Part shown: positions 25,270 to 63,685 of the stretch, piece by piece
Layout of the letters: the number at the start of each line of letters is the position of its first letter
How positions within the stretch are numbered: position 1 is the first letter of the stretch
IMG/VR virus record: IMGVR_UViG_3300045988_073134
Source: a virus
Strand: one strand, 5' to 3'
Length of the DNA stretch: 64,000 bases
Notes under the pieces: model-generated
The model's input: only the letters and a program-made list of their open reading frames with translations
Told to the model about the DNA's origin: nothing
Databases searched by the model: none
Translations under genes and position numbers: made by a program

Positions 25270-25306
25270 ACATATATAGTATAGTAAATCTCATCTATTT
25301 ACTAAC
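25270..25306 (-). promoter_or_regulatory. 37-bp promoter motif copy P1
   Basis: The + strand reads acatatatagtatagtaaatctcatctatttactaac. It abuts the RBS of 25078..25254 and contains the stop codon of 25306..27201. Confidence 0.5.
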
Positions 25307-27201
25307 TACTTTTTAAATTGTTTTAATGTATCTTTTACTATTTTATCATATGACTTCATCATCTCAGGGAAGTTTTCATATAGGAATTTTCTAGTCTCGG
25401 GTTGTGTCATATTCGAACTAATCTCAGCCCATAGTTCACTAGATACTTCTATACAAGCTGACTCATATGCACTAATATTTCCATCTTGATTTCTTGTATA
25501 GTACTTAGCATCATGTCCCCATTTAGTCTTCACTGCTCCTGCCGACATCCCTTTAGCTGCATCTTGTAATGCTATTGTAAATACTTCATTATCATGTAAG
25601 AAGTCTGCAAATTTACCATTAACTAAAGCTGCTGGTGTATTTTCTAATGTTTTCTTACCATGGAATTTTTCTTGTACCCATTTAGCCTGCCAGTTATTCA
25701 TATCTCGCTCAAAAGCTTGAGCTAACCCAGTAGGTTTTATGGCGTTCTTTAATGTTATCTTAGAATACATAGGTTCACTACCTCCGGAGAACCTATACAT
25801 TTTAAAATCATCGGGTGTTGCTTGGTCGTCTATCATATGTCCCCACTCGTGGAATAATACGTCATATCTATGTTTTTCCCCAAACTGTATTCTAAGGTTT
25901 CGTTCATCTTTTAAGGACATATGTATCTTTTTATCAGTAGGTGAATAAAATGCTCCACCAGTTGAATTTGTACGTTGGAACTTACCTATACTTAAGTACA
26001 TATCTTGTACCTCTAATGGTGCTTGTTTTAACGCCTCTAATATACCTTCAGTAGTGTATTTTTTATTTGTTTTGGATATTTGTTTTTTAAGTGTTTCATG
26101 TAATTCAGTATATTTAGCTGCACGCTCTTCCTCAGTATAAATACCACGTTGTTTAACTGCTTTCTTAATTGTCTTCTTAATTGATTTAGCTGGTTGCTTA
26201 GTTCCTCCAAGACCTTTATACTCAGGTATTTTGTTCATAGCACCGCTATTCTTCTCGCCATTCGCCCATGCTCTCATGTCTTTAGCAATCTCCTCAGGTG
26301 TTGCCTCTTTGCCATTTATCATCCATACTGGTTCTAGCCAACACGCTCCATTTGGATGGTCAAGTGGGATATCTTCTTTATCAACTATAAATATATGACC
26401 ATCTCTCTCGTTACACAAATCACAAGTTCTACCTGCTTCGTGATTACTATGCCATTTAACACCTCCCATGTATGGATTAACTTTTCTAGTATTAATTGTC
26501 TCTATCTGAGATTGATGTGTGATTGTAGTTCGTGCTAATCTTAATGACTCATAGTCTAGTCCACTACTATATTTTCTAGCATAACCACTACCTAGTTTTT
26601 CTCTTATCTTATTTCTACTCCATGTATGATGCCCACCCATAGCAAACTGTTTTAAGTTCTCAGCCATCTCAGCAGCTCCCATACCTTCTGCCATACAACT
26701 AGCTACTGCGTCCTCTATTTTTTCACCGCTAGTATTAGTGCAGCTCCATAGTCTTTTATCCAGTCCTTTTCTATCCTGGTATAGTTTTCCCCTTATTACT
26801 TGGTCTACTGTATCTGCATTAACTATGTCCACTAAAGTATCCACTTGGTCTTTAATTTGTTTATATCCATCTCCCATTAATAGTTGCATCATTTGTTTAT
26901 TTATATCAGCTAAATCATTAGCAACCTTACTATTATATTTCTTAACTACCTTTAGTAATTCGTCGTATATTTGCTGGCTGTATGCAGCAGTTAAGTTCTT
27001 TACAGCCTTACTATCTCCATAAGCATTTTTTATTCCTCTATTAATTGTATCCATATAAGCCTTTTTATAGACTTGTATTATCTGTTGTTGTTGATATTTA
27101 GTCAGCTCTCTTGGTTTATTTCTCAATTGTTTATTTAATGTTTCTAAGTACTCTAATCCGTTCTGTGTTTGTGTATCGCTAATAAACTGAGTCTTTGCCA
27201 T
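25306..27201 (-). CDS. MuF / SPP1 gp7-family head morphogenesis protein fused to a C-terminal HExxH (zincin-like) domain
   Basis: The MuF-type segment is RLARTTITHQSQIE...VKWHSNHEAGRTCDLCNERDGHIF. The C-terminal ~250 aa contain YDVLFHEWGHMIDD, encoded near 25832-25858. Confidence 0.65.
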   Translation of the reverse strand: MAKTQFISDTQTQNGLEYLETLNKQLRNKPRELTKYQQQQIIQVYKKAYMDTINRGIKNAYGDSKAVKNLTAAYSQQIYDELLKVVKKYNSKVANDLADINKQMMQLLMGDGYKQIKDQVDTLVDIVNADTVDQVIRGKLYQDRKGLDKRLWSCTNTSGEKIEDAVASCMAEGMGAAEMAENLKQFAMGGHHTWSRNKIREKLGSGYARKYSSGLDYESLRLARTTITHQSQIETINTRKVNPYMGGVKWHSNHEAGRTCDLCNERDGHIFIVDKEDIPLDHPNGACWLEPVWMINGKEATPEEIAKDMRAWANGEKNSGAMNKIPEYKGLGGTKQPAKSIKKTIKKAVKQRGIYTEEERAAKYTELHETLKKQISKTNKKYTTEGILEALKQAPLEVQDMYLSIGKFQRTNSTGGAFYSPTDKKIHMSLKDERNLRIQFGEKHRYDVLFHEWGHMIDDQATPDDFKMYRFSGGSEPMYSKITLKNAIKPTGLAQAFERDMNNWQAKWVQEKFHGKKTLENTPAALVNGKFADFLHDNEVFTIALQDAAKGMSAGAVKTKWGHDAKYYTRNQDGNISAYESACIEVSSELWAEISSNMTQPETRKFLYENFPEMMKSYDKIVKDTLKQFKK

Positions 27202-27230
27202 ACCTCCACCTCCTATACAATTTATTCTAT

Positions 27231-27257
27231 TAAAAAAGGAGGTTTATTAACCCCCTT
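27231..27257 (-). terminator. Terminator-like hairpin flush with the MuF gene RBS
   Basis: The minus-strand RNA reads AAGGGGGU-UAAUAA-ACCUCCUU followed by UUUUAAUAG, with one G-U pair. Confidence 0.4.
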
Positions 27258-27262
27258 TACTG

Positions 27263-27694
27263 CTACTTAATGTAGCCTTTATATTTTTCTTTTAATACTT
27301 TACCACGTGCAGCTATATCACGTCTAAGTTCTGTTATTGTGTCTAAATAATCTTTTTCCTTTTTATTTATTCTGTCCTGTATATCTTGTGGAACAAATCC
27401 ATGTATTTTAAGTTGTTCTTTTACTTCATATCTATTGCTATATTGTATTTTCTTTAGTTCTTCTAATAAATCTTGTAGTTGTGCCATCTCTCTACGTAGT
27501 TGATTGTCAGTTACAACTGTTACATATTGAGCTCCACATCTACATTCAAATCCTCTAATAATAATACAACCTTTTAATATAGCTAATTCTTTTTCTCTTG
27601 GATAAAACTCTCTGCCACACTTATCACATTTACATTTGAACTTCAATTGTTTTTCCCCTCTACGTCCTTTTGTCCATCCACCTTGTTTACTCAT
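27263..27694 (-). CDS. Zinc-ribbon plus coiled-coil protein, function unknown
   Basis: Contains CKCDKCGREF...CRCGAQY and then a coiled coil. ATG 27694 has RBS GGAGG at 27704-27708. The track start at 27703 is a TTG. Confidence 0.5.
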   Translation of the reverse strand: MSKQGGWTKGRRGEKQLKFKCKCDKCGREFYPREKELAILKGCIIIRGFECRCGAQYVTVVTDNQLRREMAQLQDLLEELKKIQYSNRYEVKEQLKIHGFVPQDIQDRINKKEKDYLDTITELRRDIAARGKVLKEKYKGYIK

Positions 27695-27723
27695 ATCAAT
27701 CAACCTCCTACACTTTTTTATCT

Positions 27724-27760
27724 ACATATATAGTATAGAAAATTAGTTGTTTTTACTAAT
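27724..27760 (-). promoter_or_regulatory. 37-bp promoter motif copy P2
   Basis: The + strand reads acatatatagtatagaaaattagttgtttttactaat (variant last base). It lies between the portal gene and 27263..27694. Confidence 0.5.
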
Positions 27761-29335: not shown

Positions 29336-29349
29336 CTTTACCTACCTCC

Positions 29350-34384: not shown

Positions 34385-34421
34385 ACATATATAGTATAGA
34401 AATAATGCTCAATTTACTAAG
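34385..34421 (-). promoter_or_regulatory. 37-bp promoter motif copy P3
   Basis: The + strand reads acatatatagtatagaaataatgctcaatttactaag. Confidence 0.5.
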
Positions 34422-35305: not shown

Positions 35306-35371
35306 TTTCTTATCTTTTATTAACTTAATTATACATCTACTTGTATAATTAATCAAGTGTTTTTTGAAAAA
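35306..35371 (-). repeat. 66-nt early promoter/leader element, copy 1 (paired with 56667-56732)
   Basis: tttcttatcttttattaacttaattatacatctacttgtataattaatcaagtgttttttgaaaaa, compared with copy 2, has about 8 mismatches. Confidence 0.7.
35328..35356 (-). promoter_or_regulatory. Sigma-A-type early promoter E1 (TTGATT-17-TATAAT)
   Basis: The minus strand reads TTGATT AATTATACAAGTAGATG TATAAT with an A/T-rich upstream tract. It overlaps the 9-6-9 palindrome AATTATACA-TCTACT-TGTATAATT at 35327-35350. Confidence 0.6.
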
Positions 35372-38281: not shown

Positions 38282-38318
38282 TTGTATATAGTATAGAAAA
38301 ATTTAACATTTTACTAAC
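38282..38318 (-). promoter_or_regulatory. 37-bp promoter motif copy P4
   Basis: The + strand reads ttgtatatagtatagaaaaatttaacattttactaac. It contains the stop codon of the holA-like gene. Confidence 0.5.
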
Positions 38319-39372: not shown

Positions 39373-39696
39373 CTATTTTCCTCCCTTTTGTTTTTTTCTC
39401 TTTACTCCATGTTTCTTCATGTCTTGTTTTTCCCTTTGGTTGTGTTCTTGTTTCATATATAGTATATTATTTAATGTTATTTTGCTAAATTCATCTACAA
39501 ATAATTTTTTATTTTTCTTACTTATCTTGATGCCATTCTCATCTTCATTGATAGCACATACAGTTTCAAAATGTCTCGTAGCAAACCCACGGACATATTT
39601 CTCCTCGCTATACCAGGCAAAACAATCTTTATAAGCCTCTGCAAATTGTTTGGCAAACTTTTTAATTGCTCTTGCATCATTTTGTAGTGGTAACAT
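39373..39696 (-). CDS. Hypothetical protein with a basic C-terminus
   Basis: 107 aa ending in KKHGVKRKKQKGGK. Confidence 0.45.
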   Translation of the reverse strand: MLPLQNDARAIKKFAKQFAEAYKDCFAWYSEEKYVRGFATRHFETVCAINEDENGIKISKKNKKLFVDEFSKITLNNILYMKQEHNQREKQDMKKHGVKRKKQKGGK

Positions 39697-40501: not shown

Positions 40502-41502
40502 AAAATAATCAACTCGCTTTCAATCAAATTTTTAGGATTCTGCTCATATTTTATCTTGTCTAATAAGTTATTTACTCCGTCTAATATATCTACTAAGTCA
40601 TATTTTGAAGTATTAGTTGCTATGTGGATACACTGTCTCATTATGTCAGTTGGTATCATTGTTAGTTCTTTATTTCTTGTTATGTTCAGCTTACATAGGT
40701 CTAGTACAAACTTATTTAAATCTTTTACAAATAGTTTTAAGTCCTTGCCGTCTCTGTATATACTGTCTATTATTTGTATTGGCTCATCTGCTTGTTTATT
40801 TATAATACCTTGTACTATCTTTAATAGATGTTCATAGTTAGTAATACCTAGACAATCTAATACAGCTTGTAATGTAATATCAGTTGTGTAACCAAGTACT
40901 GTATCTAGTTTCATTATGGCATCTCTCATTCCACCGTCGGCCAACTTAGCTATATACTCCAATGCCTCTATGTCATAAGTTATTTTTCCCTCTTGTTGTA
41001 ATATATATTTCAATCTTTGTACTATCTCAAACTGAGGAATACGTTTAAAGTCAAATCTTTGTAGTCTGCTCAATATAGTTGCAGGTATTTTATGAGGGTC
41101 AGTAGTACATAGTATGAATATAACTCCTTTTGGTGGTTCTTCTAATACCTTTAATAGTGCATTAAATGCACCAATGCTTAACATGTGCACCTCGTCTATT
41201 ATATATACCTTGTATTTACTATCCAGGCTCTTCATTCTACAGTCGTCAATTATACTACGTATATTATCAACCCCGTTGTTACTGGCACCGTCTATTTCAA
41301 TTGGTTTTCCTTTACCACCATTTACATCACTTGCAAATATTCTTGCACTCGTAGTTTTCCCAGTACCACTTGAGCCACAAAATAGATAAGCCTGTTTTAT
41401 CTCACCAGTTTGTAATTGATTACTTAATACCTTTTTCACATTATCTTGACACACTACATCCTCAAAATGTTGTGGTCTATATTTAACAGCTAAATTCATC
41501 AT
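40489..41502 (-). CDS. dnaX: DNA polymerase III gamma/tau-like clamp-loader ATPase
   Basis: KYRPQHFEDVVCQ, Walker A GSSGTGKTT, IIDEVHML, NALLKVLEEPP and ILSRLQRF. ATG 41502 has RBS GGGAGGA at 41511-41517. Confidence 0.8.
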   Translation of the reverse strand: MMNLAVKYRPQHFEDVVCQDNVKKVLSNQLQTGEIKQAYLFCGSSGTGKTTSARIFASDVNGGKGKPIEIDGASNNGVDNIRSIIDDCRMKSLDSKYKVYIIDEVHMLSIGAFNALLKVLEEPPKGVIFILCTTDPHKIPATILSRLQRFDFKRIPQFEIVQRLKYILQQEGKITYDIEALEYIAKLADGGMRDAIMKLDTVLGYTTDITLQAVLDCLGITNYEHLLKIVQGIINKQADEPIQIIDSIYRDGKDLKLFVKDLNKFVLDLCKLNITRNKELTMIPTDIMRQCIHIATNTSKYDLVDILDGVNNLLDKIKYEQNPKNLIESELIILCLK

Positions 41503-42001
41503 ATAATATATCCTCCCTTTGTATATGTTTATAAGTTTCATAATAATAACAACTTATTATAGTACTTTCCTTTATTTCTGGAAATAAATTACATACTTCA
41601 AATCTACTTAATCCAGCTAACCTAAGGCGTCTAATTAAAATAACCTGGTCATCTGTTAATTTACAATTACCACTTTTACCTCGTTGATACCCATGTTTAT
41701 ATGAATGCTGTGTATTATGGGCTATTGTACACCATTCCAAATTACTTACAGTATTATCCAATTTATTACCATTTATATGATTAACACAAGGATAATTATT
41801 GGCATTGGGTAAAAACGCTTCGGCTACTAATCTATGTACTCTTTTATAATAACGTTTATAGTTAACACATAAACATATTTCCTCATAACCACTAGACCCT
41901 ATAACAGTACTCATTATTTTATTATACTTATTTTTTATACGTCCTTTATTACTTACATAATAAATCCGTCCTTGTATATTAAAAGGTCTCCACTCCTCCA
42001 T
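41483..42001 (-). CDS. HNH_3/NUMOD4-type homing endonuclease
   Basis: WRPF...YYVSNKGRIKN (NUMOD4-like) and VNHINGNKLDNTVSNLEWCT (HNH_3-like). It overlaps both neighbours. Confidence 0.7.
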   Translation of the reverse strand: MEEWRPFNIQGRIYYVSNKGRIKNKYNKIMSTVIGSSGYEEICLCVNYKRYYKRVHRLVAEAFLPNANNYPCVNHINGNKLDNTVSNLEWCTIAHNTQHSYKHGYQRGKSGNCKLTDDQVILIRRLRLAGLSRFEVCNLFPEIKESTIISCYYYETYKHIQREDILYDEFSC

Positions 42002-42345: not shown

Positions 42346-42382
42346 CTATATATAGTATAGGAGGTATCTCTTATTCGCTAAC
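42346..42382 (-). promoter_or_regulatory. 37-bp promoter motif copy P5 (variant -35-like block GTTAGCGAA)
   Basis: The + strand reads ctatatatagtataggaggtatctcttattcgctaac. It overlaps the 9-5-9 palindrome cctcctata-tatag-tataggagg at 42342-42364. Confidence 0.45.
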
Positions 42383-42997
42383 TTGGTCTTTAACTTTTTT
42401 AAAAAAATCTTTTACTACTCTTGATACATAAGCAGGTGATACACTGTACTGATATGCTATGTATGTACCTTTTATGCCACACAGATAATCTGCTATTATA
42501 GCACGTTGTTTGTCATTCTTCACGTTCTTTAATTCTTCTCTAATAATTTCTTTTAACTCACGTACTAATGCACTAAGCTCTACATCTTCTTTACTTTCCA
42601 AATAATTCTCTAATGATGTGTATCTAATATGACCATGATGTTTGAGTTGTATATATCCATCTATGGATAATATCTTATATATATTTTGTTCACCATCTGT
42701 AGTATATCTATTATGTTTGTCTATTCTATTTCTGTACTGTCTTAATTCTCTTTTTATTGAGGGATATGCAAAAGTTGTGAATAGTGTACCATATGAAGGG
42801 TCATAATGGTCTACACACTTCATTATACACTGCCATGCGACCTGGTACAGCTCATCTCTATCATTGTATAATTTATATGGTTTTAATAGGGAATATACCA
42901 TATTGTCTATGTACTGTGGTAATTCGTTTATCGCCTCTTTATCTCCGTTTTTATATCTCATAACAATTTCCTGGCACTTATTTCCATTATTACTCAT
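42371..42997 (-). CDS. Sigma-70-family factor (regions 2 and 4)
   Basis: DELYQVAWQCIMKCVDHYDPSYGTLFTTFAYPSIKRELRQY is region 2-like. The C-terminal IAYQYSVSPAYVSRVVKDFFKKV is a region 4-like HTH. Confidence 0.65.
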   Translation of the reverse strand: MSNNGNKCQEIVMRYKNGDKEAINELPQYIDNMVYSLLKPYKLYNDRDELYQVAWQCIMKCVDHYDPSYGTLFTTFAYPSIKRELRQYRNRIDKHNRYTTDGEQNIYKILSIDGYIQLKHHGHIRYTSLENYLESKEDVELSALVRELKEIIREELKNVKNDKQRAIIADYLCGIKGTYIAYQYSVSPAYVSRVVKDFFKKVKDQVSE

Positions 42998-44664: not shown

Positions 44665-44701
44665 ACATATATAGTATAGAAAAAGTGGGTGATTTACTAA
44701 C
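44665..44701 (-). promoter_or_regulatory. 37-bp promoter motif copy P6
   Basis: The + strand reads acatatatagtatagaaaaagtgggtgatttactaac. Confidence 0.55.
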
Positions 44702-44708
44702 CACCCAC
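44681..44708 (-). terminator. Terminator hairpin embedded in P6 (loop holds the -35-like block)
   Basis: The minus strand reads GTGGGTG-GTTAGTAAAT-CACCCAC followed by TTTTTCTATACT. Confidence 0.55.
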
Positions 44709-44714
44709 TTTGTT

Positions 44715-45278
44715 TTATTTACCAGTAGTATATTTAAAAATATATCCACCTGTAGAGTTCCATACACCATTACATACATCCACAATATACTGTCGTTTAA
44801 TACCTGTTTGTTTGGAGGTTTCACCTGCATTAATAAACGTTTTAACGTATTGTCCTTGTTTGGTATACATCTCTACGGGTTTTAAATCGCGTTCCCAACG
44901 TTTTTTACTCATATTTGATAAATGTTCTTTACTACTATAATCTCTGTTCCCACATTCTAAGGCGTGTATATTATTATGTTGTACCGTACACCATTCTAAA
45001 TTTTCTACTCGATTATCATCTCTTATACTATTAATATGATTAACTACGGGCAGATTATTTGGGTTAGGTATAAAGGTCATTGCAACTAATCTATGCACTT
45101 GGTAGTAATAACATTTACCTTCCTTATATAAATTTACTTTTAAATAACCATCCTTACTATATGGCAAGTGCATCCAATGTTTTCGTTTAACACCATATAT
45201 TTTCCCATCTCTTGTTATTTTATATAGACCTTCAAAACCAGGTATATCATATAATTGATTATCGATTCGTAGTTCCAT
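44715..45278 (-). CDS. HNH_3/NUMOD4-type homing endonuclease
   Basis: IPGFEGLYKITRDGKIYG and VNHINSIRDDNRVENLEWCT. ATG 45278 has RBS AGAGG. It overlaps the 3' end of dut. Confidence 0.7.
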   Translation of the reverse strand: MELRIDNQLYDIPGFEGLYKITRDGKIYGVKRKHWMHLPYSKDGYLKVNLYKEGKCYYYQVHRLVAMTFIPNPNNLPVVNHINSIRDDNRVENLEWCTVQHNNIHALECGNRDYSSKEHLSNMSKKRWERDLKPVEMYTKQGQYVKTFINAGETSKQTGIKRQYIVDVCNGVWNSTGGYIFKYTTGK

Positions 45279-45717
45279 AACCGCCTCTATCTGGGTTGCC
45301 AAGCTCATCCACCTCCTCTATGTCTAAAGGAGTACTTTTTTTCACACTTATCTGAACTAATCTATCACCTTTTTTAAATGCTCCATATCTAGTACTATAA
45401 AACATTGCTAACCATTCATCATTATCTCCACAATACGTATCATCAACTAATCCCATGCTATTAGTAAGTAATAGACCAGTATTTTTAAAGGTGCTACTAC
45501 GTGGTAGTATATACCCCTCGTAGCCTTTTCCCATGTCCATTGCAAATCCTAAATTGACTACTATTATATCTCCAGGTGAGAACCTTATTATATTACCTGT
45601 AGGTTCCACACCATTCACACTTGCAGTACGTACATAACAGTCATACCAATTACCATTTTTACTTTGTGGAGCTTTACCTCCTTCAAATAATCTTACTTTT
45701 ACTTTTTTATTTGCCAT
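45259..45717 (-). CDS. dut: dUTPase (trimeric type)
   Basis: GYILPRSS, GLVDDTYCGDNDEW and C-terminal DRGGYGTT match dUTPase motifs. Confidence 0.75.
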   Translation of the reverse strand: MANKKVKVRLFEGGKAPQSKNGNWYDCYVRTASVNGVEPTGNIIRFSPGDIIVVNLGFAMDMGKGYEGYILPRSSTFKNTGLLLTNSMGLVDDTYCGDNDEWLAMFYSTRYGAFKKGDRLVQISVKKSTPLDIEEVDELGNPDRGGYGTTNR

Positions 45718-48550: not shown

Positions 48551-49462
48551 CTAAAATAATCTTTTTTGGTATCTGTTATTACCTTTATATTTATAGTTAT
48601 CTGCCCAATCTTTAAAGTAATTTATATTGTATAATTGTCTACTCTCTTGGTTTTCCATACATTGCTCTATTGATGTTCCATATGAAACGCATTGCTCATC
48701 TATTTGTCTCTGTACTAACTGTGGTAATTTATTGTAATGACTGACTTTGTGTTGTACTTTTGGTGATACACATATTCTACCATATTTGGTACATAACTCT
48801 CCATTTATTGCAGCCATTAACCACGTTGTACTGTCTGCACTCTCAAAGGGATAATTTTCTAATATGTCTAAGTTAGTCATCCCAAACGCATGAACTTTTA
48901 CTTTTGGATTCTTACTTTGTTGTATAATCTTAAAACATTGTTTATACCAATCTTCTTTTACTGAGCTGGCCAATCCAACAGTTCCACCAAGTCCTATATA
49001 TGGAATATGTTTCCCATGAAACGTTGCCTCTAACATATTTTGTAGATGTCTAAAGTCTTCTCCAATATGAAATACTGGTAATAATTTGTCTTTGTCTCTT
49101 ACTTGCTCTCTCATATATAAATAATTGTGCCATGACTTCTCAGGCGATTCACGTTGCTCTAATAATGTAGGTTTTCTTTTTAACTCACCTGGAATGTCAT
49201 CTACACTTGCAAACAAAGTAAATTTGTCTGTATTATCATTTATAAACTTTATATAATCTTCTACGTCTATATGTTTATTTTTACTCCAAGCACTGTATGC
49301 TCCCGAGTCTATAAATAACTTATTATTGGACATTACTTCTAAAAACTTCATTATAACTTTTCTGTCATTTATTTGTGAAAATAGTACATCACATTCTCTT
49401 TTTATTATTATGTCATTCTGAGTATTTACTTTACTTCCCGCTAAATATAAGTTAAAACTCAT
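48551..49462 (-). CDS. dpdA: DpdA-like DNA guanine transglycosylase, paralogue 2 (TGT fold)
   Basis: LFIDSGAYSAW, GLGGTVG, HAFGMT and ESADSTTW parallel the TGT motifs DSGGFQ, LxGVG and DxFDS. It lies downstream of the preQ0 genes. Confidence 0.6.
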   Translation of the reverse strand: MSFNLYLAGSKVNTQNDIIIKRECDVLFSQINDRKVIMKFLEVMSNNKLFIDSGAYSAWSKNKHIDVEDYIKFINDNTDKFTLFASVDDIPGELKRKPTLLEQRESPEKSWHNYLYMREQVRDKDKLLPVFHIGEDFRHLQNMLEATFHGKHIPYIGLGGTVGLASSVKEDWYKQCFKIIQQSKNPKVKVHAFGMTNLDILENYPFESADSTTWLMAAINGELCTKYGRICVSPKVQHKVSHYNKLPQLVQRQIDEQCVSYGTSIEQCMENQESRQLYNINYFKDWADNYKYKGNNRYQKRLF

Positions 49463-49474
49463 TCAGCTCACCTC

Positions 49475-50398
49475 CTAAAATAATCTCTTTTGAAACCTAT
49501 TGTTACCTTTGTATTTATACTTATCTGCCCAGTTTTGTATATAATGAATATTAACAACAGTTCTCAAGTTAGTATTTTCTACACATTCTTCTAATGTCAA
49601 ATTACATTCAGCTATTTGTGCTTCCACTTGTTTCTGTACATCTTTTGGTAATTTTAATATGTGGTTAGGTCTGTGTTGAGCAGAATTAGATAATCCTACA
49701 ACACCATATTTTGTAAGAATATTTCCATTAATTGCCAACATCATCCAGGTAGTACTATCAGCACTTGTAAATGGATAATTCTCTAATATATTCAAACTAG
49801 TCATTCCAAAAGCATGTGTTTTTATATTTGGGTTATTACTCTCTTTTATTACTTTAAAACATTGTTTATACCAATTACTCTTTACTGAACTTGGTCTAAC
49901 TCCAACTGTTCCTCCTAACGCTATATATGGTATATGTTTTCCGTCTAATATTGTATTACACATATTACTCAGATGTTTAAAATCTTCTCCCATATGAAAA
50001 ACTGGTAATAATTTGTCGGGTTCTTTAACTCGCTCTCTCATATATAAATAATTTTCCCACGATAATAATGGAGATTGTTGTTTCTCTTTTAGTGTTGGTG
50101 TTCTCGTTAATTCTCCTGGTATATTATCTACACTAGCAAACAATGTTAACTCATTGGTATTCTCATTTAAATAATTTATATACTCATCTGTATCAATACT
50201 TTTACCTCTTGACCAGGCACTATATGCTCCACTATCTACAAATACTTTTGTACCTGGTTTTTCTTTAGCTTGTTGTAACCATAATTTTCCTCTACTCCTA
50301 TCACGTAGTTGAGAATATAATCTACAACTTCCTCTTGCCATCATGGCTTCATCAGCTTCAATATCTCTCACTCCTGCGAAGTATAAATCAAAACTCAT
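49475..50398 (-). CDS. dpdA: DpdA-like DNA guanine transglycosylase, paralogue 1 (TGT fold)
   Basis: VFVDSGAYSAW, ALGGTVG, HAFGMT and TSADSTTW. It is roughly half to 60 percent identical to the next gene by eye and shares its C-terminus KYKGNNR(F/Y)QKRLF. Confidence 0.6.
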   Translation of the reverse strand: MSFDLYFAGVRDIEADEAMMARGSCRLYSQLRDRSRGKLWLQQAKEKPGTKVFVDSGAYSAWSRGKSIDTDEYINYLNENTNELTLFASVDNIPGELTRTPTLKEKQQSPLLSWENYLYMRERVKEPDKLLPVFHMGEDFKHLSNMCNTILDGKHIPYIALGGTVGVRPSSVKSNWYKQCFKVIKESNNPNIKTHAFGMTSLNILENYPFTSADSTTWMMLAINGNILTKYGVVGLSNSAQHRPNHILKLPKDVQKQVEAQIAECNLTLEECVENTNLRTVVNIHYIQNWADKYKYKGNNRFQKRLF

Positions 50399-50419
50399 GT
50401 TATCAACTCCTTTTTAATT

Positions 50420-50456
50420 ACATATATAGTATATAAAAAGTGGCCAGTTTACTAAC
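50420..50456 (-). promoter_or_regulatory. 37-bp promoter motif copy P7
   Basis: The + strand reads acatatatagtatataaaaagtggccagtttactaac. It lies upstream of dpdA paralogue 1. Confidence 0.55.
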
Positions 50457-50463
50457 TGACCAC
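50435..50463 (-). terminator. Terminator hairpin embedded in P7, after folE
   Basis: The minus strand reads GTGGTCAG-TTAGTAAA-CTGGCCAC followed by TTTTTATATACT, with one mismatch. Confidence 0.5.
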
Positions 50464-50471
50464 TTAATTTT

Positions 50472-51050
50472 TTATCTAAATAATTCATATGCTTCTTGTC
50501 TTAATTCAATATTAGTTTTAAATCTACCTCTTATAGTTGCAGTTCTTGTTTTAGCTCCACGAGATTTAATTCCTCTTGCAGTCATACAACTATGTTCACC
50601 TTCTACTACTACAATTATATCTTCTGTATCTAATATCATCTGTAGTATATCAGCAATATCTTCTCCAATACGTTCTTGTAATTGTAGTCTCTTAGCTACC
50701 ATGTCTGCCACTCTAGCAATTTTACTAAGTCCTATAACCTTTCCGTTTGCTATGTATCCAACACTGACAGTCATATTATACATTAATGCCAAGTGGTGTT
50801 CACAATAACTAAAAATTGGTATTTTAGATACAGTTACAAGGTCATCTGCTCCCTCATCATAAAAACATTTATCGAACATCTCAGCTATTTCTTCATTTGT
50901 ATAGTTCATACCTTCAAATACTTCTTGATACATTTTAGCGACTCTTTTAGGAGTCTCTTTTAGTCCTGCTCTGTCTGGGTCATCTCCTAACGCCACTAAT
51001 ATATCTCTTACTGCACTTTCAATTTTCTTAGTATCTATCATATTATACAC
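50472..51050 (-). CDS. folE: GTP cyclohydrolase I
   Basis: [34 protein letters not shown] and [11 protein letters not shown]. Confidence 0.85.
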
Positions 51051-51699
51051 CTCTCATATTTGGATTCCATATTATTTTATGCAACTGAACTTGTACTTTT
51101 ACATTGTTTAATCTATTATCCAGTATATACTCAACTAATTCTTTTGGTTCTATTTTACCAAATACTGGTGATACATAAGGCTGAGCTTTACATTCGCTCT
51201 CCTCTAGTATATATTCCATTTTCTCTAATTCATTGTAATTACTAACTACAAATTTAATTACATCTTTAGGTTGAAGTAATTTTAAATTCCACAACTTCAT
51301 TTTATCTTCCATGCCACTACTTGCACATTTATAATCCATTGTGAATATTACTTTACTATTATACTTGTATTCCCAAAACTTATCTAAATCAACTGCTCCA
51401 TTAGTTTCTATATTTACTTCAACATCATTAGCTACTAAAGAGTTGATTAAATCTTTTACATTCTCATGTATTAATGGTTCTCCTCCAGTTAATGTTACAC
51501 GAGGAACTCCGTATGTTAATACCTCATCTAATATATCCATTAATGGCATTTCAGTATATTCACTATTTTCACAACTATAACGAGTATCACAGTAACTACA
51601 TTTTAAATTACAGCCATACAGTCTTATAAAGACTGTAGGCAACCCAGTTCTAACTCCTTCTCCATCTATACTAAGAAATATTTCATTTACTTTATACAT
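51043..51699 (-). CDS. queE: 7-carboxy-7-deazaguanine synthase (radical SAM)
   Basis: [42 protein letters not shown] 51699 lies just after the queD stop. The track start at 51765 is inside queD. Confidence 0.85.
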
Positions 51700-51700
51700 T

Positions 51701-52075
51701 TTATCTTCCACAATTACATCCCCCTTTAACTTCATATATTGCAGTGTTATGAGCACTTTCCTCAACGCTTACTCTAGTACATTTTACATATATGCCATCA
51801 AACATACCAGTTAATTGGTCAGCTATCCATTTAGCAATATTCTCAGCAGTTGGATTAACTCCAACAACATCATTTATATACGCATGGTCTAATTGGTTTA
51901 CAACTCTTTTTATATGAGTAAAATCCATTACCATTCCATACTCAGTTAATTCTTCACTCTCTATTTGAACTTCTATATTCCAGTTATGACCATGTAGGTT
52001 ACTACATTTACTTTCATAAGGTAAATCTAATTTATGAGCTCCTGCAACTTCCATTTTCTTTATTATTTTATACAT
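51701..52075 (-). CDS. queD: 6-carboxy-5,6,7,8-tetrahydropterin synthase
   Basis: 124 aa with SKCSNLHGHNW and the PTS-fold size. Confidence 0.8.
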   Translation of the reverse strand: MYKIIKKMEVAGAHKLDLPYESKCSNLHGHNWNIEVQIESEELTEYGMVMDFTHIKRVVNQLDHAYINDVVGVNPTAENIAKWIADQLTGMFDGIYVKCTRVSVEESAHNTAIYEVKGGCNCGR

Positions 52076-52076
52076 A

Positions 52077-52811
52077 TTATTTTTCCTCCCAATCTATTTT
52101 TATTTTATATGGTACAGGGTCAACTGCTCCATTTGCCTTAAAGGCATTTATTCTATCTATACAAGTACCACAAGTACCACAACAAGGTCTTTCACCTTCA
52201 TAACAGCTATGAGTTAATTCGTATGGCACTTTTAAATCTAATCCCAAACGTACAATATCTTTTTTAGTCATATTTACAAAAGGAGCATGAACTCTAACTT
52301 TGTCATAAGTACCAATTGATATAGCTTTATCCATAGTCTCAGTAAATTCAGGACTACAGTCAGCATAGGCTTCACCGGCTGCATCATCTACATGAGCTCC
52401 TAAATATATAGTAGCAATTGTGTCTGGTTTGTCTTCAACTAGACTCATCGCTATGGCAGCTACACTACTTAATAATAATCCATTTCTAAATGGTACATAA
52501 GTTCTTACCATTCCCTCTCCATCTTTGGCTATTTGGTCTGCATAACTCTCATGTCTAATTTCTTCTGTACTATTAGATAATAGAGAACAGTTACTATATG
52601 CAAATATTTTACTTAAATCTATTTCTATATGTTTTACATCATAATACTCAGCTATATCTTTTGCACATTTCAATTCAATACTGTGCTTTTGTCCATAATA
52701 CGCACTAACTGTAACAACATTCTCTTTTCCATATAAATCTACTGCTAATCCCACTGCTGTTGTACTATCTACACCACCACTATTTAATACTACTGCAATT
52801 TCTTTACTCAT
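52077..52811 (-). CDS. queC: 7-cyano-7-deazaguanine (preQ0) synthase
   Basis: PP-loop VVLNSGGVDSTT and C-terminal zinc motif SCYEGERPCCGTCGTCIDR. Confidence 0.85.
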   Translation of the reverse strand: MSKEIAVVLNSGGVDSTTAVGLAVDLYGKENVVTVSAYYGQKHSIELKCAKDIAEYYDVKHIEIDLSKIFAYSNCSLLSNSTEEIRHESYADQIAKDGEGMVRTYVPFRNGLLLSSVAAIAMSLVEDKPDTIATIYLGAHVDDAAGEAYADCSPEFTETMDKAISIGTYDKVRVHAPFVNMTKKDIVRLGLDLKVPYELTHSCYEGERPCCGTCGTCIDRINAFKANGAVDPVPYKIKIDWEEK

Positions 52812-52842: not shown

Positions 52843-52879
52843 ACATATATAGTATATAAAAAACTCGGCTTTTACTAAC
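52843..52879 (-). promoter_or_regulatory. 37-bp promoter motif copy P8
   Basis: The + strand reads acatatatagtatataaaaaactcggcttttactaac. It lies upstream of queC. Confidence 0.55.
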
Positions 52880-52886
52880 CGAGTTT
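52857..52886 (-). terminator. Terminator hairpin embedded in P8, after polA
   Basis: The minus strand reads AAACTCGG-TTAGTAAAAG-CCGAGTTT followed by TTTATATACT. Confidence 0.55.
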
Positions 52887-52896
52887 TAAATATTTA

Positions 52897-56035: not shown

Positions 56036-56072
56036 ACATATATAGTATAGAAAACCAGGTTATTTTACTAAC
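56036..56072 (-). promoter_or_regulatory. 37-bp promoter motif copy P9
   Basis: The + strand reads acatatatagtatagaaaaccaggttattttactaac. Confidence 0.55.
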
Positions 56073-56080
56073 CTGGTTTT
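56047..56080 (-). terminator. Terminator hairpin embedded in P9
   Basis: The minus strand reads AAAACCAGGT-TAGTAAAATA-ACCTGGTTTT followed by CTATACT. The stem is 10 bp. Confidence 0.55.
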
Positions 56081-56688: not shown

Positions 56689-56717
56689 ATTATACATCTA
56701 CTTATATAATTATACAA
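56689..56717 (-). promoter_or_regulatory. Sigma-A-type early promoter E2 (TTGTAT-17-TATAAT)
   Basis: The minus strand reads TTGTAT AATTATATAAGTAGATG TATAAT, inside the 66-nt element 56667-56732 shared with E1. Confidence 0.55.
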
Positions 56718-59052: not shown

Positions 59053-59086
59053 AAAAAGTCTTACTATATATAGTATAGTAAGACTT
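59053..59086 (-). terminator. 13-bp perfect palindrome around the -10 of P10, followed by a T-run
   Basis: The minus strand reads AAGTCTTACTATA-CTATA-TATAGTAAGACTT followed by TTTAAAT. Confidence 0.45.
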
Positions 59087-59100
59087 CGGTTTTTACTAAC
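59064..59100 (-). promoter_or_regulatory. 37-bp promoter motif copy P10
   Basis: The + strand reads ctatatatagtatagtaagacttcggtttttactaac. It lies upstream of nrdJ. Confidence 0.5.
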
Positions 59101-59698
59101 TTAATAAATAATTTAATTTCTTTTGAAGTGCACGTCTAATTCCAACAACACCTGCAGTACTAACTCCAATTTCCCTTGCCATGTGAGATTGTTGTAAGTC
59201 ACACATATGGTCAAGTGCTACCATACAATATTGTAATTGTTTTTCAGATAAATCTTCCTTATGTACTAAGTCAGATAATTCAACTTTGTCATATTCATCT
59301 TCAACACTTGCTTCCTCCCATCTATCTTCAGTTGTCTCATAACAACTCATTGGAGTACATTGGTCGCCGTTGTTCGCTTTACGTTTATTACTTGCATTAC
59401 TTTGTGTTAGAGTTCTAAGAGCATTCTTGATATAAACACATATCATAGAAGTTAATTTACCACTAGTACTCTTTTCAGCATCAAAGTTTTCAAAACATTT
59501 CCATATTTGTTCTAATATTACACTTGTAACTTCATCATCACTTACACCAACGTATTTTTTACTTACTTGATAAAATAGACTCTTATTTGTCTCAAATACA
59601 TATGCAATAACTTCATCATGAAAACCTGCTTGGTAATCTCTAACTAATTCCTCATCAGTGTGTTTTAAACCATAAACTTTAACTACATCTTTAAACAT
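59096..59698 (-). CDS. Sigma-factor-like protein (region 2-like N-terminus, region 4-like HTH)
   Basis: 200 aa. C-terminal SHMAREIGVSTAGVVGIRRALQKKL is HTH-like. The N-terminal VILEQIWKCFENFD segment is region 2-like. It is the first gene after early promoter E3. Confidence 0.5.
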   Translation of the reverse strand: MFKDVVKVYGLKHTDEELVRDYQAGFHDEVIAYVFETNKSLFYQVSKKYVGVSDDEVTSVILEQIWKCFENFDAEKSTSGKLTSMICVYIKNALRTLTQSNASNKRKANNGDQCTPMSCYETTEDRWEEASVEDEYDKVELSDLVHKEDLSEKQLQYCMVALDHMCDLQQSHMAREIGVSTAGVVGIRRALQKKLNYLLS

Positions 59699-59746
59699 AC
59701 ATCATTCCCCCTGAACTGTTTTTTTTATTTACTTTTTATACTTATA

Positions 59747-59775
59747 ATTATATAGACCTTTATATAATTAATCAA
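59747..59775 (-). promoter_or_regulatory. Sigma-A-type early promoter E3 (TTGATT-17-TATAAT)
   Basis: The minus strand reads TTGATT AATTATATAAAGGTCTA TATAAT. It overlaps the inverted repeat TAATTATATA-N6-TATATAATTA. Confidence 0.55.
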
Positions 59776-59782
59776 CCATTTT

Positions 59783-60926: not shown

Positions 60927-60928
60927 AT

Positions 60929-61084
60929 TTACCCCTCCTGTACTTTATATAATAAATCAAATAGTGGGTCTAGGTGCTCAAATACTAAATCACCTTCATC
61001 CACTGCTTTATTTATGAGCCATTTTAATTCTCTTACTAAATCTTTTTCAATTTCCATTTCTCTTATTTTTCTACCAGTTAACAT
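60929..61084 (-). CDS. 51-aa hypothetical protein, below the ORF-track cut-off
   Basis: MLTGRKIREMEIEKDLVRELKWLINKAVDEGDLVFEHLDPLFDLLYKVQEG. RBS AAGGAG at 61094-61099. Confidence 0.45.
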   Translation of the reverse strand: MLTGRKIREMEIEKDLVRELKWLINKAVDEGDLVFEHLDPLFDLLYKVQEG

Positions 61085-61097
61085 ATAATCAACTCCT

Positions 61098-61134
61098 TTA
61101 AATATATTATATTATATTTCTATAATTTACTAAC
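61098..61134 (-). promoter_or_regulatory. Degenerate 37-bp promoter motif copy P15 (-10 is TATAAT)
   Basis: The minus strand reads GTTAGTAAATTATAGAAATATAATATAATATATTTAA. It has the same end-to-end length as the other copies and abuts the RBS of 60929..61084. Confidence 0.35.
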
Positions 61135-61144
61135 TAACAATTTT

Positions 61145-61187
61145 AAAAAAGAAAAACCCCTGACATTGTCCGCTCCAATGCCAGGGT
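61145..61187 (-). terminator. GC-rich intrinsic terminator closing the short unit started at P11
   Basis: The minus strand reads CCCTGGCATTG-GAGCGGA-CAATGTCAGGG followed by GTTTTTCTTTTTT, with one A/C mismatch. Confidence 0.6.
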
Positions 61188-61241
61188 AAAAAAGGGGAGT
61201 TATATTATGAGTAGAAGAATGTGCCTCCACATTTCCTCTAC
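61147..61241 (-). ncRNA. Candidate ~95-nt small RNA or attenuator (P11 to terminator)
   Basis: It lies between a full motif copy and a terminator and has a 5' hairpin AATGTG-GAGG-CACATT. The only ORF is a 10-codon MWRHILLLII whose ATG is 1 nt from a GGA-rich patch. Confidence 0.3.
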
Positions 61242-61276
61242 ATATATAGTATAGAAAAAAGTGCCATTTTACTAAC
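61240..61276 (-). promoter_or_regulatory. 37-bp promoter motif copy P11
   Basis: The + strand reads acatatatagtatagaaaaaagtgccattttactaac. It contains the dnaB stop codon. Confidence 0.5.
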
Positions 61277-62571
61277 TAAAAAACATCAGTAACGTCATTT
61301 ATTTTATTATTATTTCTAAGTGGTAATTGTGGCTCAATCTCAGCTCCATCTTCCAGTTGTTCAGTCACAAAGGAAAATATACCGTTGTCTATGTCCCACA
61401 CATATAATAATTGCTTATTATTTTCTCCATATCTATTCTTAGTTATTTTAAGACTCAATCCCGCTTTAGTCTGTACTAAAGAAATTACTCTACTGCTATT
61501 CTGAGCAATACCATCACTCTCGCCTATGTCTGCTAATTCAGGATTCTCAGGTTTATCAATGTCCGCCTTGTTTCTATTTGCTTGAGCATCAACTATAATT
61601 GGAATACTAAATTCAGTACTCATATTAAATAAATCTTGTGCAATATGAGTGTACTGAGTTCTTGTTTGGTCTCCCTTTGCTCGTCTCTCATCTTCCATTA
61701 ATGATATTTGGTCAATACCAACTATGTCTGGTTTATACTCTTTTATAAGAGCACGTAGTTTGCTCACTGTTAACATTTTTCCACCAAAGTCTACTGGTGT
61801 TACTACTATATATGGAGGTAATTCTTTATTGTTCTCTAAGTCATTAATATATTGAGTATAATCTCCATCTGCTATTGTACCTCTCATTAATTGAGAGTTT
61901 GTGTAGTTCATACCTAAAGTATCATTTCTATACGCCACTTGTAATACTCCCATCTCACCACTATAATGTAATACTTTTTTATGTTGTTTATTTGCCTCTG
62001 TTAGAAACTTTTGTAATAGCCAAGATTTACCTTGGTTTACTCTACCAACTATAGTCACTAATTCTTCACCTGGTAGCCATCCATTAAGTATCTTATCTAG
62101 TTCAGGTAAGCCACTACCAATTCCTAACATACCGCCTTTAGCACGTTTATTCTCTAAGTCCTTTATTTTCTCATCAACCATGTTGTTAATATTTACACCA
62201 TTACTTTGAACAGTTTGGTCAAGTAGTCGTTGTGCCCTTGTGACTATATGTTGTAAGCCATCAAAAGCATTCTGTTCTAATACATCACCACTAGCTTGAA
62301 ATAGTGCCACTCCTTGGTCAAATAGATAGTTTTCTTTTAGATTATAAATAATATATTTTAGTGGCTCTAATACTTCAACAACATCAAAGTCAGGAAATTT
62401 TCCCATGAATGTTTCCCAGTCAGGTACTTTTCCATAAGTTCTAAAGTGAGTACATATAAAATCAAACTCATCTTGATAGTCTTTAAAATACTCTTTTGTT
62501 ATCCCTTGACTCGTATATGCGTCTAAATTATTATTATTCAGTATATCATTTATAGCTTGTAACTGTACCAT
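61276..62571 (-). CDS. dnaB: DnaB-family replicative helicase
   Basis: 431 aa with Walker A GRVNQGKSW, Walker B IVGIDQISLM, and a DnaB-like N-terminal domain. Confidence 0.8.
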   Translation of the reverse strand: MVQLQAINDILNNNNLDAYTSQGITKEYFKDYQDEFDFICTHFRTYGKVPDWETFMGKFPDFDVVEVLEPLKYIIYNLKENYLFDQGVALFQASGDVLEQNAFDGLQHIVTRAQRLLDQTVQSNGVNINNMVDEKIKDLENKRAKGGMLGIGSGLPELDKILNGWLPGEELVTIVGRVNQGKSWLLQKFLTEANKQHKKVLHYSGEMGVLQVAYRNDTLGMNYTNSQLMRGTIADGDYTQYINDLENNKELPPYIVVTPVDFGGKMLTVSKLRALIKEYKPDIVGIDQISLMEDERRAKGDQTRTQYTHIAQDLFNMSTEFSIPIIVDAQANRNKADIDKPENPELADIGESDGIAQNSSRVISLVQTKAGLSLKITKNRYGENNKQLLYVWDIDNGIFSFVTEQLEDGAEIEPQLPLRNNNKINDVTDVF

Positions 62572-63284
62572 TATATTCTCACCCCTTTTGGTTTCCTTTG
62601 TGTTTTGTTGGTGAATTCAACTATCGTGCTTGTATCTAATATTCTACTCGACAATCTACCTCCAATATTATCATCTAATTGCTCATCAATAACATTACTT
62701 GTAAATATGTTAGCTTTGTTATTGACTATACGCGGATTGATTAAGCTGAATAATATTTGATGGTCATATTCTTTTAACTTAGTTACTCCTATGTCATCCC
62801 ACACTATTAAGTCTACAGTTGGTATTAATTTCTCCATTTCTTCTAATCTTATATCAGGTCGTTTTATCGCATTTCTTTTGGCCATTAAGAACTCATCTAC
62901 ATTTATAAATAGTCCTCTACAACGAGTGCCATTACCATTCCAAATATTACTAAAATATTTACTCATCAACTTTATTGCCCACGTAGTCTTGCCATTACCA
63001 AAGTAAGGACTATATAGATACAAGTTACATCCATCATGTACAAAGTCATTGATATTTTCTTTTATACTATTAAGATACTCATACTTTTTAATATCATTAC
63101 CTGCACTCAACTTCAAATCCTCAGGCTGTTGTTTATTTGGTGGAATATTAGCTAAGTTAACTAAATAATAATATTGAAAATATACACTACAGCTACAATT
63201 ACAATCTTTTGTGCCATACATAGGGCAGTTAGTTCTAAACCAACATTTATCTTTAATAAATTTAAATTCTTTTACATCATACAT
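62571..63284 (-). CDS. DnaC/IstB-like helicase loader ATPase with a Cys-rich N-terminus
   Basis: Walker A YFGNGKTTWA and Walker B LIVWDDIG. ATGA-type coupling to dnaB. Confidence 0.6.
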   Translation of the reverse strand: MYDVKEFKFIKDKCWFRTNCPMYGTKDCNCSCSVYFQYYYLVNLANIPPNKQQPEDLKLSAGNDIKKYEYLNSIKENINDFVHDGCNLYLYSPYFGNGKTTWAIKLMSKYFSNIWNGNGTRCRGLFINVDEFLMAKRNAIKRPDIRLEEMEKLIPTVDLIVWDDIGVTKLKEYDHQILFSLINPRIVNNKANIFTSNVIDEQLDDNIGGRLSSRILDTSTIVEFTNKTQRKPKGVRI

Positions 63285-63299
63285 ATGTAAAACCTCCTT

Positions 63300-63336
63300 T
63301 TATCTATAGTATAGTAAAAAATGCACTTTTACTAAC
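63300..63336 (-). promoter_or_regulatory. 37-bp promoter motif copy P12
   Basis: The + strand reads ttatctatagtatagtaaaaaatgcacttttactaac. It abuts the RBS of the loader gene. Confidence 0.5.
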
Positions 63337-63338
63337 AT

Positions 63339-63377
63339 AAAAAAACCCTCGATACCAAAGGGGGTAGGTACCGAGGT
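63339..63377 (-). terminator. GC-rich intrinsic terminator closing the short unit started at P13
   Basis: The minus strand reads CCTCGGTACC-TACCCCCTTT-GGTATCGAGG followed by GTTTTTTT. It has the same 5 bp / A-C mismatch / 4-5 bp layout as 61145-61187. Confidence 0.6.
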
Positions 63378-63434
63378 AAAAAACAAATAGATATTAAGGG
63401 TTGAGTATATAAGGAGGTTTCCCATATTCCTTAC
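63341..63434 (-). ncRNA. Candidate ~95-nt small RNA or attenuator (P13 to terminator)
   Basis: The architecture is the same as 61147-61241. The 5' end AAGGAATATGGGAAACCTCC resembles AGAGGAAATGTGGAGGCAC of the other unit. There is no credible ORF. Confidence 0.3.
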
Positions 63435-63469
63435 ATATATAGTATAGAAAAAATCATTGTTTTACTAAC
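63433..63469 (-). promoter_or_regulatory. 37-bp promoter motif copy P13
   Basis: The + strand reads acatatatagtatagaaaaaatcattgttttactaac. Confidence 0.5.
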
Positions 63470-63473
63470 TTTA

Positions 63474-63512
63474 AAATAAAAAAATCCCAACGGGTTACCA
63501 AGCCGTTGGGAT
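63474..63512 (-). terminator. Strong intrinsic terminator (10-bp stem)
   Basis: The minus strand reads ATCCCAACGG-CTTGGTAAC-CCGTTGGGAT followed by TTTTTTTATTT. Confidence 0.65.
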
Positions 63513-63650
63513 ATATTTGGGGATTGTTAATAATTTCTTATTAGTTGGTTATATGAAGTTAATCACCTACTCTCTTATTATACACTATTGGGTCATATAA
63601 GAAAATAATAAAAATTAAAATAATATAAAAATAATTTAATAATAAGTTAC
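63476..63650 (-). ncRNA. Candidate ~175-nt non-coding transcript (P14 to terminator), 5' half almost pure A/T
   Basis: There is no ORF longer than 3 codons with an RBS. The span 63601-63648 is almost pure A/T with one G. An alternative reading is an origin or DNA-unwinding region. Confidence 0.25.
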
Positions 63651-63685
63651 ATATATAGTATAGAAAAATTGTGTAGTTTACTAAC
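63649..63685 (-). promoter_or_regulatory. 37-bp promoter motif copy P14
   Basis: The + strand reads acatatatagtatagaaaaattgtgtagtttactaac. It contains the stop codon of 63681..63953. Confidence 0.5.

Follow-up and report, generated by a model that had tools for sequence, protein, structure and literature searches.

A recurrent 37-nt motif is almost certainly the main promoter class of a Dp-1-related siphophage and is probably read by a phage-encoded sigma factor

Introduction

The middle promoters of bacteriophage T4 combine a MotA box at −30 with a sigma-70 −10 element and work through AsiA appropriation, and those of SPO1 have the consensus AGGAGA / TTTNTTT. In T4-like phages, the promoters of promoter early stem-loops (PeSLs) are host sigma-70 early promoters, and the PeSLs themselves are defined by indel shuffling in hyperplastic regions. 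They are conserved short intergenic cassettes that join a stem-loop terminator to a promoter, with many per genome (PMC2839356, PMC4122927), and SPO1 runs a cascade from sigma-A to gp28 and then to gp33/34 (PMC13401047). Here we describe a 37-nt motif, class 1 in what follows, that recurs between positions 25270 and 63685 of a 64,000-nt stretch of viral DNA (IMG/VR record IMGVR_UViG_3300045988_073134; the window), which comes, on sequence grounds, from a lytic siphophage of ~68 kb with Streptococcus phage Dp-1 and Clostridium phage phiCTP1 among its relatives. An initial annotation of the window had proposed a phage promoter served by a dedicated sigma factor. We find that the motif is very probably a promoter and almost certainly represents the main promoter class of the phage, and we favor sigma1, one of two sigma factors encoded in the window, as its reader.

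This arrangement would resemble SPO1 middle (gp28) transcription in several ways: the host core polymerase would be retained, a small two-domain phage sigma would be expressed from a host-type early promoter, a large phage promoter set has a −35 element unlike TTGACA, and a second phage sigma lies further down the cascade. Unlike in SPO1, whose middle consensus differs, the class-1 −10 remains TATAAT-like, and the present phage is a siphophage known from sequence whereas SPO1 is a Herelleviridae myophage; when 50,697 phage records were searched by tblastn (E ≤ 1e-3), neither sigma1 nor sigma2 hit SPO1. The pairing of a host-like −10 with a conserved 9-bp element in place of the canonical −35 also recalls T4 middle promoters, but this phage encodes full sigma factors, and the ~28 proteins scanned include no homologue of MotA or AsiA. 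As in PeSLs, a conserved terminator is joined to a promoter (the class-1 box lies in the terminator loop in four copies, the −10 in the hairpin in one, and the motif 2–20 nt after a terminator in three); in contrast to PeSLs, the class-1 stem sequences are copy-specific and the box itself is the loop in those four copies.

Homologous sites are present in Dp-1 (NC_015274), where CTTAACAAA or GTTTACAAA followed by TATAAT/TATATT-ATATATG stands upstream of syntenic genes and a TTGACx-17-TATAAT class stands in front of the sigma gene gp69. The Dp-1 record annotates generic −35/−10 promoters, neither divided into classes nor connected with gp69, and the Dp-1 box is near the host consensus whereas that of the window has moved to TTAGTA. 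The Dp-1 interactome paper contains nothing on sigma or RNA polymerase. The Dp-1/phiCTP1 group, to which a pneumococcal phage and many uncultivated ones found in public metagenomes belong, has to our knowledge no described transcription programme. The analysis gives a testable map for the group, with a host sigma-A early class, a main class for which a phage sigma is the probable reader, and a simple residue-to-base rule for sigma1 and its box. If that rule is true, the group would supply Gram-positive synthetic biology with orthogonal sigma/promoter pairs ready for use and would be a clean natural case of a sigma factor coevolving with a whole promoter set; if host sigma-A reads the class-1 sites, they are an ordinary phage promoter family.

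Results

Two rigidly spaced blocks recur on one strand and are conserved across relatives. On the coding (minus) strand the class-1 motif reads G-TTAGTAAA-N8-TTTTTC-TATACT-ATATATGT. Searches with the full 37-mer, allowing at most three mismatches, gave 11 matches, all on one strand, and none in 100 dinucleotide-preserving shuffles. The core TATAGTATA-N14-TTTACTAA matched 16 times (12 of them exactly) against 3.35 expected, and TTAGTA-N16-TATA[ACT][AT] occurs 14 times on the coding strand and twice on the opposite one (shuffle mean 0.27). Every copy is on the minus strand and points the same way as the genes, and 13/16 are intergenic or overlap a stop codon only. The 14 copies listed in the initial annotation are real, with correct start coordinates, an identical 37-nt register and the same TTAGTA-N16-TATACT spacing throughout, although the list missed one copy that is conserved in relatives (39453–39489). 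Its two degenerate copies had different fates: that at 61098 is a genuine TATAAT variant of the −10, conserved in a lineage whose sigma1 is 66% identical to that of the window (L110; relatives are denoted by L numbers), and that at 24612 is in a different register and belongs to a separately conserved element.

Among 188 distinct copies from relatives, both blocks are ~95–100% conserved and N8 is unconserved. Comparison of orthologous copies gives the same picture, with the blocks retained while N8 and the flanks diverge, so the likeness among copies reflects selection on specific positions and not recent duplication. The nine box positions are all fixed in more than 14 copies and in the lineage with a sigma1 only 66% identical. 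Each related genome examined carries a class-1 motif of its own, with a strong strand bias.

The anatomy of the motif and of its surroundings is that expected of a promoter. GTTAGTAAA would form a −35-region element extending from −35 to −27, N8 and TTTTTC the spacer, and TATACT the −10 hexamer, with transcription predicted to start at the G of ATATATGT. In every copy the base 7 nt after the −10 hexamer is a purine (G or A). In five copies (25270, 38282, 42346, 61098 and 63300) a Shine-Dalgarno (SD) sequence begins 0–2 nt after the motif, which fits the very short leaders proposed in the initial annotation; since an SD at the motif edge must be in the mRNA, transcription would have to start inside ATATATGT, which is where a −10 at TATACT would place it. 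Across all copies, the motif is followed either by an SD 0–37 nt further on or by a terminated noncoding unit. The motif had been described as lying directly 5′ of a ribosome-binding site throughout; this is true of 11 of the 14 listed copies, whereas those at 63649, 63433 and 61240 precede terminated units of 95–180 nt without an open reading frame (ORF). The box also ends coding sequences, as had been claimed for five upstream ORFs (stops at 63681, 61276, 59096, 38314 and 25306), through its TAG or through a TAG ending on its first G.

Two of the ORF-less units begin with a 5′ hairpin from the predicted +1 G, continue with a C-rich single-stranded stretch and end in a terminator (fold z = −2.3 and −4.3). 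The C-rich patches (ACCUCCUUA and CUCCCC) are anti-Shine-Dalgarno-like, and syntenic counterparts with CCCC/CCCUU patches are present in L110, L114, L115, L119, L121 and L161; none of the three units (63336–63434, 61148–61241 and 63470–63650) has an Rfam match. Stand-alone terminated units of this kind are explained by an autonomous start signal and not by an RNA processing site.

Class-1 copies sit at the heads of operons and are usually coupled to intrinsic terminators, a feature absent from the initial annotation. N8 pairs with the sequence preceding the box at 56036, 52843, 50420 and 44665, which makes the box the hairpin loop and the T-run the terminator tail (−14 to −18 kcal/mol). In relatives these stems carry compensatory changes while the box is unchanged, for example U-A to C-G at 52843, and C-G to U-A together with G-C to A-U at 50420. 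The hairpin at 59064 encloses the −10 instead, a layout that recurs after sigma1 in L110 and L115, while in L117 the copy after sigma1 has its box in the hairpin loop. The copies at 63433, 63300 and 61098 lie 2–20 nt after separate terminators. N8 is variable because it often serves as a stem arm. Each class-1 copy would thereby restart transcription right after, or inside, the terminator that closes the previous unit, and the genome would be cut into insulated units, each terminated and then reinitiated at the same spot.

Read in the direction of transcription, the copies are distributed as follows. The first, at 63649..63685 (like all those below, on the minus strand), would drive a ~180-nt ORF-less unit (63470–63650) with the terminator CCCAACGG...CCGTTGGG plus T7 at its end. 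The next, at 63433..63469, begins 8 nt after a terminator and would drive a ~95-nt unit resembling a small RNA (63336–63434), and the copy at 63300..63336 follows a terminator by 2 nt and stands upstream of the DnaC-like/DnaB operon. A further ~94-nt unit of the same kind (61148–61241) would be driven from 61240..61276. The variant at 61098..61134, GTTAGTAAA-N14-TATAAT-ATATTTAA, which is kept in L110, precedes two small ORFs and the primase gene. The copy at 59064..59100, which follows sigma1, has its −10 within the terminator hairpin 59056–59086. Then come 56036..56072 upstream of the SSB gene, whose box occupies the loop and upper stem of the terminator hairpin 56051–56080 (−17 kcal/mol), and three copies with the box in the terminator loop: 52843..52879 upstream of QueC/D/E/FolE (hairpin 52860–52887), 50420..50456 upstream of the DpdA paralogues (50438–50465) and 44665..44701 upstream of the operon of dCMP deaminase, RecA and sigma2 (44682–44711).

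The copy at 42346..42382 has a degenerate box, GTTAGCGAA, that is canonical in a clade of ~87% identity. At the same place (42346–42375, minus strand) a palindrome, CCTCCTATACTATATATAGGAGG (CCTCC...GGAGG), conserved in relatives, links the −10 with the SD of the gene that follows; this SD would be paired in RNA reading through from sigma2 and free in RNA started at the promoter. The additional class-1-like copy at 39453..39489 reads TTTAGCAAA-N14-TATACT-ATATATGA and is conserved in 10 relatives. At 38282..38318 the SD starts at the motif edge. Boxes CTTAGTAAA and ATTAGTAAA characterize the copies at 34385..34421 and 27724..27760, the latter after the portal gene, and the last copy, at 25270..25306, follows the Mu-F-like head gene and has an N8 that is divergent in relatives while both blocks are fixed.

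A second class of promoter conforms to the host type. Three sites, TTGATT/TTGTAT-17-(TG)TATAAT within a 10-bp inverted repeat, make up class 2 in the window: TTGATT-17-TATAAT at 59747..59775 directly upstream of sigma1, TTGTAT-17-TGTATAAT at 56689..56717 within a palindrome, and TTGATT-17-TGTATAAT at 35328..35356, where the inverted repeat TTAATTATAC/GTATAATTAA spans both the −35 and the −10 (all on the minus strand). A conserved leader, GTTAATAAAAGATAAGAAAA, follows the class-2 promoter. Class-2 sites fit the host sigma-A −35 (at least 4/6 to TTGACA, with G at −33), whereas class-1 sites do not: TTAGTA, which the initial annotation had called unlike TTGACA, agrees with it at 3/6 positions, has A at −33 and is not accompanied by a TG extension. 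In a scan for sigma-70-type promoters, the canonical class-1 copies were not among the matches listed. By its sequence, a class-2 site is a textbook sigma-A promoter whose operator is likely, and with its inverted repeat it looks like an early promoter under operator control. In L061, a relative whose map closes on itself, the first promoter after the lysis-gene terminator is of this type, from which it follows that class 2 opens the early region.

The host-type promoter also stands in front of the sigma1 gene with great consistency. Besides the window, 12 other lineages have a class-2 site immediately before sigma1 (L110, L114, L115, L116, L117, L119, L120, L124, L161, L169, phiCTP1 with gp43 and Dp-1 with gp69); in L121, where a recombinase gene is inserted upstream of sigma1, only a TATAAT is seen. 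The sigma1 gene would therefore be expressed from a host-type promoter, apart from the class that sigma1 itself is proposed to read.

Both sigma-like proteins noted in the initial annotation are encoded in the window. The sigma1 gene (59096..59698, minus strand), at a conserved position after the primase gene, encodes a 200-aa two-domain protein of the sigma-70 family. In profile searches its family aligned with regions 2 and 4 of WhiG, FliA, SigF and SigH (E = 1.6e-10), and the top Foldseek matches of its AlphaFold2 model (mean predicted local distance difference test, pLDDT, 88.5) are all sigma factors; sigma1 is a genuine member of the family. The sigma2 gene (42371..42997, minus strand) encodes a 208-aa SigF-like sigma (Sigma70_r2) in the operon of the class-1 copy at 44665.

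The recognition helix of sigma1 varies together with the class-1 box. We aligned its region 4.2 to Escherichia coli sigma-70 in two ways, through the WhiG alignment and by hhalign, which places S-T-A-G-V-V-G of sigma1 opposite T583-R584-E585-R586-I587-R588-Q589. In sigma-70, R584 reads the C:G pair at −31, E585 and R588 read −33, and region 4 touches 9 bp (PMC2613000). The R584 equivalent is Thr in the window and L110, where the class-1 box is TTAGTA. It is Arg in L114, L115, L117 and L119/L161, which have TTAACA, in L121, which has TAAACA, and in Dp-1 and L169, which have TT(A/T)ACA or TAAACA. In phiCTP1 it is Ser with a TTTAAT box, in L124 Pro with TTTA(G/A), and in L184 Gly with TTGA(A/T)A, the last together with Glu and Arg at the equivalents of 585 and 588; L116, L118, L120 and L123 are too short for defining a box. 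Thus, in ~8 lineage groups C at −31 accompanies Arg at this position, and boxes paired with Thr, Ser, Pro or Gly lack that C. L184 is likewise the only lineage with an equivalent of E585 in sigma1 and the only one with G at −33 of the class-1 box. Both correspondences, that of Arg to C at −31 and that of a missing Glu to a missing G at −33, are expected if sigma1 docks as sigma-70 does. The recognition helix of sigma2 shows no such covariation with the class-1 box across lineages. For sigma1 as the reader, we regard the covariation as supportive but not decisive.

Discussion

We suggest that class 1 probably consists of middle promoters, with sigma1 as their reader, in a cascade like that of SPO1. 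Host sigma-A RNA polymerase would use the class-2 promoters (TTGAyT-17-TGnTATAAT), one of them in front of sigma1, and sigma1 would then direct core polymerase to the class-1 promoters, a set that would take in the genes for replication, nucleotide metabolism and DNA modification, part of the head genes, three small RNAs and sigma2. In a third step, sigma2 may serve the late structural operon. The proposal in the initial annotation thus holds at the level of sequence as far as the promoter itself is concerned; its dedicated sigma is less certain, but the existence of a separate host-type class and the covariation with sigma1 favor one and add to the argument made there.

Several observations weigh against this cascade. 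We found no distinct late promoter class to complete its third step. The covariation sets ~4 Arg clades against ~4 non-Arg clades that are not fully independent, with no phylogenetic correction, and the boxes of L117, L124 and L184 rest on 1–3 sites each. The −10 (TATACT; in relatives TATAAT, TATATA or TATATT) resembles that of sigma-A, and by a manual alignment of region 2, sigma1 is without the sigma-70 aromatics Y430 and W433 and also without Q437 and T440. The TTAACA box of several relatives, at 5/6 to the sigma-A −35, could in these phages be read by sigma-A, and the GenBank record of Dp-1 labels its class-1 sites ordinary promoters.

Some of these points lead directly to the alternative that the host sigma-A holoenzyme alone reads class 1, the nonconsensus box setting a moderate strength or serving the terminator loop and stop codons, with sigma1 and sigma2 acting elsewhere, e.g., at a few late promoters. 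We consider this rather unlikely, even though it would account for the sigma-A-like −10 and 16-nt spacer, the near-consensus TTAACA/TTTACA boxes of relatives, the view of the Dp-1 annotators that the sites are sigma-70-type promoters, and an A/T-rich, UP element-like stretch upstream of the box; late promoters would be few and easily missed. What it leaves unexplained is the fixation of nine box positions, even alongside a 66%-identical sigma1, while N8 is free. G at −33, the most conserved base of the sigma-A −35, is absent from class 1 (except in L184) and always present in class 2 of the same genomes, the box changes with the recognition helix of sigma1 whereas host sigma-A is invariant there, and TTAGTA, TTTAAT and TTTAG would be poor sigma-A sites. 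The resemblance to T4 middle promoters, with a sigma-A-like −10 and a 9-bp nonconsensus box (−35 to −27), raises a related scenario in which host sigma-A reads the −10 and another phage protein (a MotA/AsiA-like activator or appropriator, or sigma2) reads the box near −31. The many small early ORFs without known function could supply such a protein, but a Pfam scan of ~28 window proteins (not every small ORF, and blind to nonhomologous analogues) matched neither MotA nor AsiA, sigma2 has a class-1 promoter upstream of it and a recognition helix that does not track the box, and the covariation of sigma1 fits direct reading by a sigma region 4; we judge this scenario improbable.

It is very improbable that the motif is no promoter at all but acts at the RNA level, e.g., in processing, or serves as a recombination cassette or as the target of a protein of replication or packaging. 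Conserved composite intergenic repeats can be recombination points, as PeSLs are in T4-like phages (PMC4122927), and L115 has extra small genes between repeated promoter copies. Several copies, however, come right after strong terminators and would hence rarely be transcribed from upstream; the motif is strictly one-stranded, coupled to SDs and followed by three stand-alone terminated units; and its blocks fit a −35/−10 geometry with a purine at +1. As for a phage RNA polymerase of the T7 type, none was found among the early-region proteins scanned, where the large ORFs are PolA, ribonucleotide reductase, terminase, portal and Mu-F-like proteins (the structural ORFs of 635–1517 aa were not scanned), and the ~4.3 kb that L061 has outside the window is without an ORF of more than 430 aa.

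If sigma1 is indeed the reader, Dp-1/phiCTP1-like siphophages might form a natural series of orthogonal sigma/promoter pairs, a tentative extension to which we give somewhat less credence. Sigma1 would dock at the −35 as region 4 of sigma-70 does, its specificity would have drifted, and all ~15–20 promoters of each genome would have changed in step, with C at −31 where the residue is Arg and T, A or G where it is Thr, Ser or Pro. Since these promoters are built into terminators, the box serving as loop and the U-tract as spacer, the phage would control both the ending and the restarting of every unit.

Late Region and Other Features of the Genome

The element at 24612..24648 (minus strand), TTTAGTTAATATTTTT-N8-TAATATATA, lies after a terminator and upstream of a 24.5-kb structural operon that runs from 24519 to 1 on the same strand. 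Within 24520–24696 (minus strand), a terminator with compensatory changes is followed by perfectly conserved TTTAGTTAATATTTTT, a variable 8 nt and TAATATATA, and then by a ~130-nt leader with the long invariant stretches GTTTTCTTTGTTTTC and TATAATCGTCGATGGACGTTAAAC. Element and leader together are a candidate late promoter and regulatory leader. In a search for a late class, the gap 32012–31826 had too few diverged orthologues, and the 24612 element, though conserved, is unique; relatives with a 65%-identical capsid protein have a different sequence upstream of the scaffold gene. A likeness of the class-1 box to the SPO1 late −35 (CGTTAGA) and to sigma-E/K or sigma-28 elements was considered and dropped, because the −10 is mismatched and relatives do not keep the C of TATACT.

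All long ORFs of the window are on the minus strand, and its GC content is ~32% with negative GC skew throughout. Transcription would proceed from a DnaC-like loader, DnaB, primase, sigma1, a class II-like ribonucleotide reductase, SSB and a family A DNA polymerase to QueC/D/E/FolE, two DpdA-like transglycosylases, a sliding clamp, a Cas4-like exonuclease, dCMP deaminase, RecA and sigma2, and on to clamp loaders, ThyX, a DNA methylase, terminase, portal, the Mu-F-like head protein and the structural operon. The gene order is common to the window, Dp-1 and phiCTP1, and the window polymerase is 47% identical to those of the two phages. The same phage population is represented by ~80 IMG/VR fragments of 75–98% nucleotide identity, and further relatives of the locus were gathered with a PolA alignment. 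Only the ~4.3 kb of L061 that carry the lysis genes and then the first early genes are absent from the window.

Searches for close isolates and for the host returned little. Megablast of 20 kb of the window against the 50,697 phage records gave no match, and thus no close isolate at the DNA level. Scanning 185,579 bacterial and archaeal genomes for the class-1 motif gave five unrelated single matches, with no genome having more than one copy and no clue to the host, and transfer RNA (tRNA) and Rfam scans of the window had no match.

A complete 7-deazaguanine DNA-modification module occupies 48551–52811 (minus strand), with QueC, QueD, QueE and FolE followed by two tandem DpdA/TGT-like paralogues of 307 and 303 aa; the DNA of Dp-1 carries dPreQ1 (PMC6884629). 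The replication module holds two inserted HNH_3 homing-endonuclease-like genes (44715–45308 and 41483–42001, minus strand), one also with NUMOD4, and one such gene stops 13 nt before the class-1 promoter/terminator at 44665. Relatives have extra genes between DnaB, primase and sigma1 (L115, 2637–5398; L121, 7253–8839), which in L115 are several small ORFs, each with its own class-1 or class-2 promoter, and in L121 include a serine recombinase. These inserts suggest that the promoter/terminator cassettes mark insertion points. Finally, the major capsid gene is followed (window 22210–22294, minus strand; L155 5099–5176) by a conserved GCTCATTnTATTCCyTTATATA and then a hairpin, both kept in phages whose capsid protein is only 65% identical; this element may be an attenuating terminator or an RNA element.

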